This document shows, one piece after another, positions 1-6,333 of a DNA stretch of 64,000 nucleotides; position 1 is the stretch's first letter; every line of letters begins with the position of its first letter. The position numbers and the translations under genes are program-made. The notes below the pieces were generated by a model. That model worked only from the letters and a program-made list of their open reading frames with translations. It did not search any database and had not been told where the DNA came from. This DNA comes from a virus (lineage: Duplodnaviria > Caudoviricetes). The stretch covers positions 6,266 through 70,265 of the IMG/VR virus record IMGVR_UViG_2974533118_000001, one strand, 5' to 3'.

Positions 1-2
1 CG

Positions 3-314
3 TTTGAGGAAGCCCGGGCAGCCGTCCGAGCTCAAAACCATCCCATTTGGGAAGACAACGACACCCCCGGCGAATACATGGTCGCCGGCTACGGGTGGGA
101 GAACGACGAAAGCTATCTACTCGTGGAGGGCGCGCGCGAGTATCTGGAAGACGGCGACAACGAATATGTAATTCAGGACGCCCCCGCCGTGTTCGTGGAC
201 AAGGAAACCGGCACCGTGGTGTTGGCCGAGTTCCTGGCGGTCTTCGAGGTCATAGCGTCCATGACCCCGGTCCCCGGCCATGAGCCGCCCACAGACCCCG
301 ACGACGACGAATAA
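3..314 (+). CDS. Imm35/YrhB-like protein (5' end runs off the window edge)
   Basis: Frame is open from base 3 (FEEARAAVR...). The segment EYLEDGD...PAVFVDKETG resembles the Imm35/YrhB pattern YLxTGD...PxxVDKxTG. Confidence 0.5.
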   Translation, partial: FEEARAAVRAQNHPIWEDNDTPGEYMVAGYGWENDESYLLVEGAREYLEDGDNEYVIQDAPAVFVDKETGTVVLAEFLAVFEVIASMTPVPGHEPPTDPDDDE

Positions 315-324
315 CCCCACCCCC

Positions 325-364
325 AGCGCCCCGCAGCCACCCCAAGGCTGTGGGGCGCTTTTTT
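325..364 (+). terminator. Intrinsic terminator
   Basis: AGCGCCCCGCAGCC / GGCTGTGGGGCGCT stem followed by a T-tract. Confidence 0.85.
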
Positions 365-376
365 GTGACACCTCAA

Positions 377-417
377 CCGTCCCACAACCGTGGTCACGCC
401 GTGGGCATTATCAGGGC
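377..417 (+). promoter_or_regulatory. Late-class promoter, copy 1
   Basis: CCGTCCCACA-N20-ATTAT, predicted +1 at A418, directly after the terminator. Confidence 0.7.
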
Positions 418-457
418 ACGAGGCTAGACAACGATTCAGTAGAAACGAGGTAGCACC

Positions 458-688
458 ATGCCGGTCAAGCGCGGTAAAGATGGACGTTTTGCCCCCAACG
501 GTGGACGCGTCCGCGACAAGGGCAAGGCCAAGGGCAAGAAAAAGCCCATCAGCAAATCCGGGTTTGACCGTTGGATGGGTGCCAAAAAGCGAACGGATGC
601 CAAGACAGCGGCCAAGGGCAAGATTTCTGAGGCTGGTTTCAACCGCTGGGCCGACGCGAAAAAGCGCGTTGAGTCCCGCAAAAAGTAA
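458..688 (+). CDS. Lys/Arg-rich head-module protein 1
   Basis: RBS GAGG; 27 of 76 residues are K/R; N-terminus MPVKRGKDGRFAPNGG; internal repeat ISxxGFxRWxxAKKR twice. Confidence 0.85.
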   Translation: MPVKRGKDGRFAPNGGRVRDKGKAKGKKKPISKSGFDRWMGAKKRTDAKTAAKGKISEAGFNRWADAKKRVESRKK

Positions 689-699
689 GGAACGGGAAC

Positions 700-1155
700 A
701 TGCCGGTTAGGCGAGATTCAAACGGGCGGTTCGCTGGCGGAAGCGGTGGGAGTTCTAAGCGAGCTTCCAGGGCGTCCAAGAAAATGGGCGCCGTCAAGCC
801 GCGCACCGCAAGCACTGACCGCAGCAAGGTAACCACCTCCAAGGTTGCTGGCAAGGGCCGGGTAGGGCAGACGGCAAGCAAGGTTGTGCGCACACAGGGC
901 GCGGCTAATCAGGTCAAGGCGGCAAAGTTCGACACCGCCAGCCGCGATCAAGCCATGTCCAAGCGCGTGAACATGAACAAGAAAGCTGGTTTGGCTGGGG
1001 CTGCGTCCAGGAAAGCAAGCTTTGACCGCAGCCCGGACAGGGTAAAGGGCGGACTCAAGAAAGCCGCAAACGTCGCCGGCCGGGACGCGATCAAGGCTGA
1101 GGGGCTGAAGGCGATCACGGGAGAACGACGCTACAAGCGAAAGAACCGGAAGTAG
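700..1155 (+). CDS. Lys/Arg-rich head-module protein 2
   Basis: RBS AAGGA; N-terminus MPVRRDSNGRFAGGSGG; strongly basic. Confidence 0.85.
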   Translation: MPVRRDSNGRFAGGSGGSSKRASRASKKMGAVKPRTASTDRSKVTTSKVAGKGRVGQTASKVVRTQGAANQVKAAKFDTASRDQAMSKRVNMNKKAGLAGAASRKASFDRSPDRVKGGLKKAANVAGRDAIKAEGLKAITGERRYKRKNRK

Positions 1156-1161
1156 AGGGCC

Positions 1162-1545
1162 ATGGCTGTCAAACGAGACTCTAACGGGCGGTTCACGTCC
1201 AGCGGCGGCACCAAGGTGGGCAGCCGTTCCGCCAAGCTGGCCAAGGTCAAGGGCCACAAGAAAGCCGTGTTGGACAACAACAACGCCCGGAAGAACCTGT
1301 CCGAGGTCCGGCGCAAGGCTGAGAAAGCGGACAACTTGGCGTTCCGTAAGGGCGACAAAGAGGGCATGAAGAAAACCGAGGCGCACCTCAAAAAGGTGGG
1401 TGCCGGGGCAAACAAGCTGCTGGACCAGCAAATGAAACTTGGGCAGAAATCCAAGACTGGTGGGCGCAAGCTGTTGCCGTTCAAGCCGGAAGTTGCCAAC
1501 AAAAAGGCGCAGGTCAAAAAGCGCCGCGCGAAAGCGGGGAAGTAG
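1162..1545 (+). CDS. Lys/Arg-rich head-module protein 3
   Basis: RBS GAGGG; N-terminus MAVKRDSNGRFTSSGG; strongly basic. Confidence 0.85.
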   Translation: MAVKRDSNGRFTSSGGTKVGSRSAKLAKVKGHKKAVLDNNNARKNLSEVRRKAEKADNLAFRKGDKEGMKKTEAHLKKVGAGANKLLDQQMKLGQKSKTGGRKLLPFKPEVANKKAQVKKRRAKAGK

Positions 1546-1551
1546 CACACC

Positions 1552-3006
1552 ATGGCTAAATTCAAGACTGTTGAAGGCGTGCCCTTGGTCAAAACTGGGA
1601 CCTGGAACGGTTCCACGGGTGCCCGGGCTATCGGCAAAGAGGACTTGGAAGCAATCGTGGAAGCCCACGAATCCAAGATTCTTGACAAGGGTGTGCTAAA
1701 AAAGGGCCACCTTGACCCACGGCACCAGAACCCCACGTGGGACGGCGAACCGGCCTATGGTCAGGTGGACAACCTCCGCTTGTCCGAGGACGGCGAAACG
1801 CTGCTGGGTGACTACATCAACGTGCCGGAAGACTTGGCCGAATCGCTGCCGTCTGCGTACCCCAACAGGTCCGCAGAAATCGCGTGGGGCGTGAAGCTCA
1901 AGGACGCTGCCGGGAAGGTCACCAAAGAGTTCAAGGCAGCGCTTGCCGGCGTCGCCCTGTTGGGACGCACGCCCCCGGCTGTGAAGGGCTTGGGTGGGCC
2001 GGTGTCCGCGTTCTCTGAGGGGCTGGAATACGAAAGCATTGGTGTGTTCACCATGGTGTCCCAGTTCTCGCTTCCGGGTGGGCTGACGGCCAACGCGCTG
2101 CGTGAGGCGCTGTCTACGGCGATCACCGACGAGTTCAAGGCCAAGCGCACGCTGGACAGCGAATATGGCGAGTGGCCGTGGATGGTGGACTACGACGACA
2201 CCAAGGCGTGGTTCCGTTCCAACGGTGGCGTGTTCCAGGTTGGTTACACCGCGTCTGACGACGGCGTGATCACGCTGAACGACGACGTGACCGAGGTAAT
2301 CGAAAAACGTTCATATGTTCCGGTTCCCGACACGGCCCCCGTCCCACAAACAATGCTTTCCGAAAAGCAAGCTAACGACGTACAGGGCGCCGCAAGCGCC
2401 AACGAGAAAGCTACTAGGGAGGAATCCTCCATGTCCGAGTACCTTAAGAAGCTCCGGGACAAGCTGGGCTTGCCTGACACGGCCACGGAGGAAGAAATCC
2501 TTACCGCAGCCGCCGAGGCCGTCCAGACACCCGCAGCCGACGACAAGGGCGCCGCACCCGCTGCCGCTCCCGCCGCTGCCCCCGCAGCCACCACGGCTGA
2601 GGTCACCGAACAGACCAACAACAGCGCCGGCAAGCACGCCGCCCCCGCTGCTGGTGACAGCGCACCGGAAACCGTTGTGGTTTCCAAGGCCATGTTCTCT
2701 GAGCTCATGACCACCAGCCAGTCCAACGCCGAGCGGTTGGCCGTTTTTGAAGCGGACAAGCGCAAGGCGCACGTTGAGGGCTTGGTTTCCAAGTTCTCTG
2801 CCGCTGGCAAGATTCACCCCAGCGAGGTGGCGTTCTTCACCAGCGCGCTGACCAAGGATGAAGCCGAGACCGTAGCGCACCTTGAGGCGCGAGTCGGGAT
2901 CCCCGTTTCTCCGATTGGTTCCTCGACCGCCGACACCGTGGCTTTCAGCGAAAGCGACAACCTGGACCCGGCGTTCGCCTACTTCAACCTGGAAGGTGGC
3001 AACTAA
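1552..3006 (+). CDS. Capsid maturation protease / scaffold (Mu I/Z-like)
   Basis: VPLVKTGTW...KKGH...PAYG...YPNRSAE...VALLGxTPPAVKGL protease-like N-half; Ala/Pro-rich helical C-half; lies upstream of the capsid genes. Confidence 0.8.
   Translation: MAKFKTVEGVPLVKTGTWNGSTGARAIGKEDLEAIVEAHESKILDKGVLKKGHLDPRHQNPTWDGEPAYGQVDNLRLSEDGETLLGDYINVPEDLAESLPSAYPNRSAEIAWGVKLKDAAGKVTKEFKAALAGVALLGRTPPAVKGLGGPVSAFSEGLEYESIGVFTMVSQFSLPGGLTANALREALSTAITDEFKAKRTLDSEYGEWPWMVDYDDTKAWFRSNGGVFQVGYTASDDGVITLNDDVTEVIEKRSYVPVPDTAPVPQTMLSEKQANDVQGAASANEKATREESSMSEYLKKLRDKLGLPDTATEEEILTAAAEAVQTPAADDKGAAPAAAPAAAPAATTAEVTEQTNNSAGKHAAPAAGDSAPETVVVSKAMFSELMTTSQSNAERLAVFEADKRKAHVEGLVSKFSAAGKIHPSEVAFFTSALTKDEAETVAHLEARVGIPVSPIGSSTADTVAFSESDNLDPAFAYFNLEGGN
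2339..2379 (+). promoter_or_regulatory. Late-class promoter, copy 2 (inside the protease gene)
   Basis: CCGTCCCACA-N20-AAGCT, predicted +1 at G2380. Confidence 0.6.
2431..3006 (+). CDS. Nested in-frame scaffolding protein
   Basis: GGGAGGA RBS 7 nt before an in-frame ATG (MSEYLKKLRDKLGL). Confidence 0.65.
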   Translation: MSEYLKKLRDKLGLPDTATEEEILTAAAEAVQTPAADDKGAAPAAAPAAAPAATTAEVTEQTNNSAGKHAAPAAGDSAPETVVVSKAMFSELMTTSQSNAERLAVFEADKRKAHVEGLVSKFSAAGKIHPSEVAFFTSALTKDEAETVAHLEARVGIPVSPIGSSTADTVAFSESDNLDPAFAYFNLEGGN

Positions 3007-3009
3007 GCC

Positions 3010-3393
3010 ATGGGCAAGTACCAGAACCCAACCGATATTGTCCGCGACCCGGCCAAGAACTACACCGCCAAAGCTGGCGCGGGTGCTGCTGTCCGCGGCT
3101 CGCGTTTCGTGTCTTTCATTGCCGGTGGTAACCGCGAGGTTCCCCGCGCTGCTGAGTCCACCGCAACGTCCGCCGTCGTCGGTGTCTCCAAGTACGACGC
3201 CGCCGCAAACGAGACGTTCGGCATCATCAAGGGTGGACAGGCTGGCGTTATCGCTGGCGGTGCTGTCGCCGCTGGTGACCGGGTGGTCTCCGATGCACAG
3301 GGCCGTGCCGTGAAGGCTGCGGACGGCGCCCCCTACGTCGGTGTTGCGTACACCGACGCCGCCCTCAACGCCGTCGTATACATCGACTTCTAA
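3010..3393 (+). CDS. Capsid decoration/cement protein (DUF2190-like)
   Basis: Small Gly/Ala/Val-rich protein with the AGGAVAAGDRVVSDAQGRAV pattern, between scaffold and MCP. Confidence 0.7.
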   Translation: MGKYQNPTDIVRDPAKNYTAKAGAGAAVRGSRFVSFIAGGNREVPRAAESTATSAVVGVSKYDAAANETFGIIKGGQAGVIAGGAVAAGDRVVSDAQGRAVKAADGAPYVGVAYTDAALNAVVYIDF

Positions 3394-4316: not shown

Positions 4317-4718
4317 ATGACCACCGCAGCACAGAAACGCCGCAGCGCGTCCGACGCGCTCAAGGGAACCGCGACCCCGGCAGAGGAAACCCTGCCGCTG
4401 TCCGAGGAAACCGGCGACGCCGCCAAGACCGAGGAAACCCCCGCAACTGGTGACCAGCCGGCCGAAACCAAGGCTGACGCCACGGTGGACGCCCCGGCTG
4501 CTGACCCGGCAGAGGGTGCCGACGTTGACGCGGACGCAGAGGAAGACGACGACGCCGAGGAAGACGAACTGGTGGAAGCCGTAGTGCTGTTCGACCTGTT
4601 CAACTACTTTGACGAGTCCGACGCCCACTGCTCTGCGCTCAAGGGCGTCACGGTGCACGTTGACCATGAGACCGCCAAGCGCGGCGTCAAGCTTGGCGCG
4701 CTCAAGGTCAAGGGCTAA
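4317..4718 (+). CDS. Acidic hypothetical virion protein
   Basis: ATG 2 nt after the MCP stop; Asp/Glu/Ala-rich. Confidence 0.7.
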   Translation: MTTAAQKRRSASDALKGTATPAEETLPLSEETGDAAKTEETPATGDQPAETKADATVDAPAADPAEGADVDADAEEDDDAEEDELVEAVVLFDLFNYFDESDAHCSALKGVTVHVDHETAKRGVKLGALKVKG

Positions 4719-5716: not shown

Positions 5717-6333
5717 TGCTTGGTGCCGAGGGTGTTTCCCGTGCGCTGGTGTACCGGCTGCTAGAGCGAGTCCCGGGCAAGCTGGCGGAAATCCGGGCGC
5801 GGCTTGGGGTGGACGCTGACGAGCTCCCGGAACTTGCCGCGATCTATCCCCACGAAATCAGCATCCGGGCTATCAACGCGTACCCGTGCGCTTCCGTGGT
5901 GGCCTACCAGACCACTGGCCGGGTTGGTAACAGGCAATTCGAGTCTGACAGCGGCTATGACGAATATTCGTTCAAGTACAAAATGCGCATTTTTCTATGG
6001 GGCATGTCCAACGACCATGTGGCCACGGACCTGCTGCGCAAACGGCTGGCGCTGGCCGTCCGCGAGGTGCTGCTGAATGACAAGATTTTCTACAACGAAA
6101 ACAGCCAGTATGCAGACCTTGACCCTGACACCCTCTTAGAGTCCTACAGCGACGTGGGCAGCTTGGCGGAAAACCAATTCCTTGGAGGGGTTTACCTTGA
6201 GCTTGAGGTTTCAAGTCAGGAAATCTTGGTGGCGTTCCAGGGTGTCCCCAACCCGGACCCGGCAACGGTGATCCCAGACTTTAGCGCCGTGGGTGAGGGC
6301 GACACGCACCCCGTCCCCCAACCGGAACCCTAG
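5716..6333 (+). CDS. Tail terminator
   Basis: Synteny; TAATG overlap with the upstream gene. Confidence 0.6.
   Translation: MLGAEGVSRALVYRLLERVPGKLAEIRARLGVDADELPELAAIYPHEISIRAINAYPCASVVAYQTTGRVGNRQFESDSGYDEYSFKYKMRIFLWGMSNDHVATDLLRKRLALAVREVLLNDKIFYNENSQYADLDPDTLLESYSDVGSLAENQFLGGVYLELEVSSQEILVAFQGVPNPDPATVIPDFSAVGEGDTHPVPQPEP

Follow-up and report, generated by a model that had tools for sequence, protein, structure and literature searches.

The window, that is, the whole stretch of 64,000 nucleotides analysed here, covers bases 6266-70265 of a virus record of 70,265 bp and originates from Arthrobacter phage PrincessTrina, a myovirus of the genus Klausavirus (cluster AR); it is 99% identical to Arthrobacter phage RosiePosie. 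Near its 5' end lies a cassette of three consecutive genes, gp7, gp8, and gp9 (Table 1), the same reading frames, to the nucleotide and with the same N-termini, that the original prediction had placed there. Their products are small and strongly basic, with 27 Lys or Arg residues in 76, 41 in 151, and 38 in 127, which bears out the share of about one third claimed for proteins of 76-151 amino acids. The isoelectric points lie at about 11-12 (11.1-11.9), net charges range from +20 to +33, and cysteine is absent from all three. Each gene is preceded by a ribosome-binding site of the GGAG/AGGA type, in agreement with the good sites predicted. Their GC3 of 0.68-0.80 is similar to that of the adjacent capsid genes, and the gp9 family has a dN/dS of 0.17-0.40; on both counts, gp7-9 are genuine coding genes. 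Long antisense ORFs at the locus were dismissed as spurious, because they overlap the protease gene and show a reversed GC-position bias.

Table 1. Features at and around the gp7-9 cassette (window coordinates unless stated otherwise)
Feature	Position	Strand	Description
gp5	genome 4243-6222 (L018:4243-6219), just 5' of the window		MuF-like head protein with PF15644 Gln_amidase domain at residues 427-543
gp6, 3' part	3..314	+	acidic, after the MuF-toxin gene; probable immunity protein; KBurrousTX orthologue carries an Imm35 note
Intrinsic terminator	325..359	+	14-bp stem with 11 G-C pairs, T-run; closes the terminase-portal-MuF unit
Promoter-like repeat GACAC-N5-CCGTCCCACA	367..386	+	upstream of the cassette
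gp7	458..688	+	76 aa, +20 net; leader 458-505, then module A (two GF[DN]RW..AKKR repeats); phrog_9140
gp8	700..1155	+	151 aa, +32 net; leader 700-750, then module D; phrog_10034
gp9	1162..1545	+	127 aa, +28 net; leader 1162-1209, then module E; phrog_8348
gp10	1552..3006	+	Mu-like prohead protease/scaffold fusion, net -28; PF10123, PHROG head maturation protease
Probable nested scaffold gene	2431..3006	+	in-frame ATG (M294 of gp10), Shine-Dalgarno sequence AGGGAGGAA, own promoter-like motif at 2329-2348

The prohead protease predicted directly downstream is gp10, recognized by its Pfam and PHROG matches; a solved relative of this Mu-like protease was not found. Next in order come a decoration or cement protein and then the capsid protein; the scaffold gene probably nested in the gp10 reading frame recalls Mu gpZ and lambda Nu3. 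The cassette heads a protease-scaffold-decoration-capsid operon, behind a terminator and a promoter-like repeat, and gp7-9 are probably co-transcribed with the protease/scaffold gene. Directly 3' of the capsid gene, gp13 (window 4317-4718) encodes a very acidic protein of 133 amino acids (net -21) with a DADAEEDDDAEEDE tract, whose homologue ArV1 ORF010 carries the label putative structural protein.

The GACAC-N5-CCGTCCCACA repeat recurs at 2339, 8610, and 17405, with variants at 6311 and 24193, exclusively on the plus strand, and each copy precedes a virion gene block. In the form GACAC-N5-CCGTCCC(A/C)CA, four exact 10-mers were counted against about 0.1 expected, and the motif is kept upstream of the cassette in the metagenome relative L021. 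We regard the repeat as a candidate late promoter specific to the phage. The late promoter originally proposed for this site hence has a repeated promoter-like motif behind a strong terminator in its favor, but no sigma-70 consensus was detected in window positions 1-3200.

The shared N-terminal leader

The three proteins open alike and continue differently, as the original prediction had it. In pairwise BLASTP of gp7, gp8, and gp9, the alignment does not reach beyond the N-terminal region (E 2e-5 to 2e-4), and the bodies compared by themselves reach local alignment scores of 34-39, which are composition-driven. The leader consensus in gp7-9 is M-[PA]-[VIQ]-[KR]-R-[DG]-x-x-G-[RK]-[FY], followed by a Gly-rich hinge, and the leader occurs nowhere else in the 70-kb genome. 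In the six isolate species compared (PrincessTrina-type, Lymara, DrYang, Colucci, KBurrousTX, and ArV1), the opening shared by each of the 16 cassette proteins is M-[PA]-[VIQ]-[KR]-R-[DG]-x-x-G-R-[FY]-x-x-x-G-G, with a mean pairwise identity of 74% over residues 1-11, and cassette proteins of divergent metagenome relatives carry the leader as well.

Differing synonymous codons are used in the leaders of gp7, gp8, and gp9, those of gp7 and gp8 having 8 identical residues but only 2 identical codons. Among gp9 orthologues, pN amounts to 0.01-0.09 at residues 1-36 versus 0.14-0.34 in the middle of the protein, with pS at 0.14-0.37. Since residues are kept while synonymous codons and sites differ, the leader is, on this codon evidence, maintained by selection at the level of the peptide and not of the DNA. 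The same observations bear on the possibility that gp7-9 are diverged tandem paralogues, whose common N-terminus is not a tag but was kept for translation initiation, for features of the mRNA, or because it marks a boundary of recombination. The genes adjoin, and weak similarity runs 27-60 residues past the leader, both in keeping with such an origin. However, conservation of the peptide over differing synonymous sites, the constraint on its non-synonymous sites, stronger than in any other part of gp9, and the recurrence of the leader in divergent relatives on bodies that are chimeric or unrelated argue otherwise, and we consider this explanation improbable.

Structural models of the cassette proteins are of low confidence overall (pLDDT 58-66). 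AlphaFold2 placed a small beta-hairpin in the leader with modest confidence, with its turn at D-S-N-G. In gp9, the leader is followed in the model by a helical hairpin at residues 22-94 (pLDDT 72-84) and then by a basic C-terminal helix, and gp8 was modelled as mostly low-confidence or disordered, with basic helices. Readings of the leader as a Tat signal or as a Pup-like sequence were without support. Its N-terminus resembles MPKxK..G..KRF, the pattern of ribosomal protein bL35, but a Pfam Ribosomal_L35p match was not obtained at E <= 0.1, and this candidate was dropped.

The glycines at the end of the leader had been read in the original prediction as a possible cleavage site. GG occupies positions 15-16 (16-17 in gp8) in 16 of 16 isolate cassette proteins, as would be expected of precursors from which a dedicated protease cuts the leader and frees mature basic peptides, in the manner of adenovirus core proteins or bacteriocins. 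In relatives, however, the pair is not invariant, with GAG in its place in the E-type protein of L023, and it is directly followed by Pro in P0020, P0023, and the E-type protein of L020. The P4 position in gp7-9 is held by Pro, Gly, or Ser, and the Met, Ile, or Leu of adenain-type sites is absent. Neither Peptidase_C5 (PF00770) nor Peptidase_C39 (PF03412) was found in the genome, where the sole papain-fold domain is the Gln-deamidase toxin of gp5, which has its own putative immunity gene. The cassette proteins accordingly match neither an adenain substrate, for which a site of the form (M/I/L)-X-G-G↓X or (M/I/L)-X-G-X↓G and a C5 peptidase would be needed, nor a double-glycine leader, which would have hydrophobic residues at conserved positions and be paired with a C39 peptidase. 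With Pro after GG, the GAG variant, the P4 mismatch, and neither peptidase present, GG-directed cleavage is unsupported and such processing very improbable; the glycines more plausibly form a hinge joining tag and body.

Mosaic bodies and restricted distribution

Behind the leader, at least six kinds of body module were distinguished: A, with two GF[DN]RW repeats; B, with GVDHILARK...AKNKR; C, with MTxADKxKAAAIMFG; D, of about 151 amino acids; E, of about 127 amino acids, which in gp9 consists of the helical hairpin at 22-94 plus a conserved basic C-terminal tail; and F, of 123 amino acids, in L023. Residues 91-153 of ArV1 ORF005 are 70-72% identical to the entire body of gp7 from KBurrousTX or DrYang, and the metagenomic protein P0017 is a chimera in which module A (65% identity) is joined to module C (72% identity). 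Judged from these alignments, the bodies are a mosaic of swappable Lys/Ala/Arg-rich modules that recombine.

The cassette reads A-D-E in PrincessTrina and Lymara, B-D-E in DrYang, B-C-E in KBurrousTX, A-E in Colucci, and a D/B chimera followed by E in ArV1. It comprises three genes in L019, B-E in L020, B-F-E in L023, and in L021 one A/C chimera directly 5' of the protease gene. All 10 Klausavirus-type genome contexts examined hold one to three leader-bearing genes immediately before the protease gene; comparison of the ten contents therefore leaves as the constant at least one leader-bearing gene, always directly upstream of the protease. The summed charge of the cassette differs widely among genomes, from +24 to +81, which is a poor fit to a fixed charge-neutralising dose.

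A profile search with the leader, suggested as a check in the original prediction, was run with a profile of 30 residues against 1.84 billion representative proteins. At E <= 1e-3 it returned nine matches, eight of them Klausavirus-type basic proteins and one a WD40 false positive, and the leader was not found outside the Klausavirus lineage in this protein set. A word-indexed search of 5.8 billion proteins agreed with this result, and tblastn against phage genomes together with a scan of IMG/VR yielded Klausavirus members only. The cassette is missing from Marthavirus Jawnski (37% capsid identity), Jinkies, and Mycobacterium phage Rem711, the closest phages whose capsid and scaffold genes are homologous.

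Family searches with gp7-9 in Pfam, PHROGs, NCBIfam, PDB sequences, the ESM Atlas, and BFVD folds gave nothing but three PHROGs without an assigned function (phrog_9140, phrog_10034, and phrog_8348), whose profile lengths are the same as those of gp7, gp8, and gp9. Histone H1, protamine, HU, and other nucleoid families gave no meaningful match in Pfam, NCBIfam, PDB sequences, or BFVD folds. The label protamine/histone-like, under which these proteins had been introduced, thus describes their composition but does not extend to homology. The literature on Klausavirus and on protamine-like phage proteins contained nothing relevant that we could find. As far as these searches reach, gp7-9 are three orphan families of small polycationic proteins restricted to Klausavirus.

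The MuF-toxin neighbor, virion labels, and capsid size

Upstream of the terminator, the PF15644 domain in gp5 is a papain-fold glutamine-deamidase toxin domain. The acidic gp6, encoded 3' of gp5, is probably the immunity protein for this toxin, and the domain content of the pair suggests a polymorphic toxin module delivered by the capsid. All seven MuF-toxin proteins of the Klausavirus type have a C-terminal extension of about 75 amino acids with the motif [FY]RK[NG]xx[GN]RWE.IPE, exemplified by RKGSNGRW in KBurrousTX, RKNAKGRW in DrYang, and RKNKSNRW in PrincessTrina. The extension is confined to the Klausavirus-type lineage: the MuF homologue of Jawnski ends right after the toxin domain, and this phage has neither extension nor cassette. 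A loose pattern accommodating both the leader and the MuF motif gave six matches in six-frame translation of the genome, one in each of the three leaders, one in the MuF tail, and two in non-gene frames. The match of the MuF tail is weak in PrincessTrina. Because the pattern was defined post hoc and the leader HMM did not detect the MuF-tail motif of PrincessTrina, the likeness is only suggestive; as such, it may tie the leader to the neighboring head protein that is labelled structural in ArV1. In L021, a metagenomic relative of 71 kb, the gene upstream of the single-gene cassette (L021:3-2024) has a different, beta-rich C-terminus in place of the MuF-toxin tail, and the neighborhood of the cassette is therefore itself variable.

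In the GenBank record of ArV1, several neighbors of the cassette are annotated as putative structural protein, and the cassette homologues ORF005 and ORF006 as hypothetical. The structural labels reportedly derive in part from virion proteomics, and ORF005 and ORF006 were each computed to yield 5-7 tryptic peptides of detectable length. Their hypothetical labels count weakly against a location in the virion, and this negative keeps two further explanations in play.

According to one of them, gp7-9 are accessories of the prohead core that act in assembly only, binding the acidic protease/scaffold through the leader or through charge, helping to nucleate or size the larger capsid, and then being degraded or expelled, so that mature virions would lack them. 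Such a role would account for the missing structural labels in ArV1. It would also fit the position of the genes immediately 5' of the protease/scaffold gene and their probable co-transcription with it, the scaffold net charge of -28, and the presence of the cassette in the Klausavirus lineage of about 70 kb but not in relatives of about 50 kb whose capsid protein is homologous and equally long. The genes for T4 gp67 and gp68, which likewise lie between the portal and protease genes, offer a positional analogue. A ruler or nucleator would, however, be expected to be conserved, yet gene number (1-3) and kind of body vary freely, and one relative makes do with a single chimeric gene. Scaffold acidity, moreover, does not differ between phages with and without the cassette, the outgroup scaffolds being equally acidic. 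We regard a role in assembly only as rather unlikely, though a serious competitor.

The other explanation places gp7-9 outside the virion, as late nucleic-acid binders that condense replicated phage DNA ahead of packaging, act on the host nucleoid by compacting it or shutting it off, or serve as RNA chaperones, with a leader that docks elsewhere than on the prohead or is regulatory. A composition like that of Lys/Ala-rich histone-H1-like tails, the predicted basic helices, and again the ArV1 homologues without a structural label are compatible with this. The place at the head of the capsid operon and the leader-like motif of the MuF protein nevertheless point to the prohead, and no known DNA- or RNA-binding family was matched, so that we hold this explanation to be unlikely.

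An enlarged DNA load was considered as well. The PrincessTrina head is listed at 57.5 nm for 70 kb, versus 54-58 nm for relatives of 49-51 kb, in a table whose head sizes correlate poorly with genome size (PLoS One 2017 S2 Table, PMC5513430). The DNA density estimated for 70 kb in a head of 57.5 nm lies above close packing. Because of the poor correlation, and because the ArV1 head was reportedly measured at about 74 nm, the idea of an over-packed capsid was rejected as a measurement artefact, probably one of negative staining.

Proposed loading mechanism and comparison with known systems

The address tag that had been proposed at the outset becomes more plausible in the light of the peptide-level selection, the mosaic bodies, the head-operon position, and the lineage restriction. 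With a tag that stays constant, cargo that shuffles, a place at the front of the capsid operon, and confinement to one lineage, the anatomy resembles that of the internal proteins of T-even phages, and we therefore rank first the reading of gp7-9 as internal head proteins. By analogy with T4, we tentatively infer that they are tag-loaded and DNA-associated, being encapsidated, binding DNA, and being ejected. Each protein would consist of two parts, a conserved N-terminal module (a weakly predicted beta-hairpin) with a Gly-rich hinge and, behind it, an interchangeable Lys/Ala/Arg-rich body. Encoded at the start of the late head-assembly operon, the products would be largely helical or disordered. 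The leader would dock the protein on a component of the prohead, either the acidic protease/scaffold core, for which gp10 is the candidate partner, or the portal-MuF complex, and docking would lead to incorporation of the basic protein into the prohead. Once the scaffold is removed, the polycationic body would bind the incoming DNA, neutralising its charge or coating it, and the protein would probably exit with the DNA at infection.

It is tempting to go further and to see in the leader, with its 11-16 residues, a portable capsid-targeting tag that evolved independently of that of T4, loads a shuffling set of DNA-coating polycations and perhaps the MuF-toxin tail, and provides proteins that enter Arthrobacter with the genome and shield or organise the DNA; we offer this wider proposal with more doubt. 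To our knowledge, DNA-associated internal proteins loaded by a defined peptide tag occur in very few tailed phages other than T4 and related ones. If the proposal is true, the occurrence of another, unrelated tag in an actinophage that is easy to grow would mean that the strategy evolved more than once, a simple handle would be at hand to package foreign proteins in phage heads for delivery to Actinobacteria, and three orphan protein families would be assigned a function. Should gp7-9 act in assembly only, they would still be unusual in forming a freely shuffling accessory of a Mu-like scaffold.

Several known systems invite comparison. With MuF-fused polymorphic head toxins, the locus shares the fusion in the neighboring gp5, the putative immunity gene, and the leader-like motif in a lineage-specific tail; gp7-9 themselves, however, contain neither a MuF nor a toxin domain, and the link runs via the motif and co-occurrence only. 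The adenovirus proteins pVII and pre-Mu, which are processed by adenain and condense DNA within the capsid, are likewise rich in Arg and Lys and have glycines near the putative processing site. Yet gp7-9 do not conform to (M/I/L)XGG-X, come without a C5 peptidase, and belong to an unrelated realm, which leaves a compositional analogy only. The T4 prohead core proteins gp67 and gp68 are comparable as small proteins encoded between portal-side genes and the prohead protease, but they are not known to be polycationic or to have a shared leader.

The closest parallel may be the internal proteins of the T-even phages, which are diverse and have in common only the capsid targeting sequence by which they enter the scaffolding core, and whose lysines in T4 contact the packaged DNA (PMC3012670). 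As in T4 IPI, IPII, and IPIII, small basic proteins that are otherwise unlike have a short N-terminal peptide in common, the locus shows plasticity and a mosaic make-up, and expression would be late, together with prohead core genes; the hallmark of the T4 targeting sequence, a short N-terminal sequence on otherwise unrelated small proteins of one phage, is thus found here as well. In contrast to the T4 proteins, to which Pfam and PHROG indicate no sequence relationship, the leader of gp7-9 is charged and beta-hairpin-like, and a cleavage motif of the T4 type, L/I-x-E, was not found after it. Moreover, the protease is the Mu-like gp10 here but gp21 in T4, and the bodies are polycations of low complexity where those of T4 are folded inhibitors. 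In their working, gp7-9 may therefore resemble the T4 internal-protein system without belonging to it.
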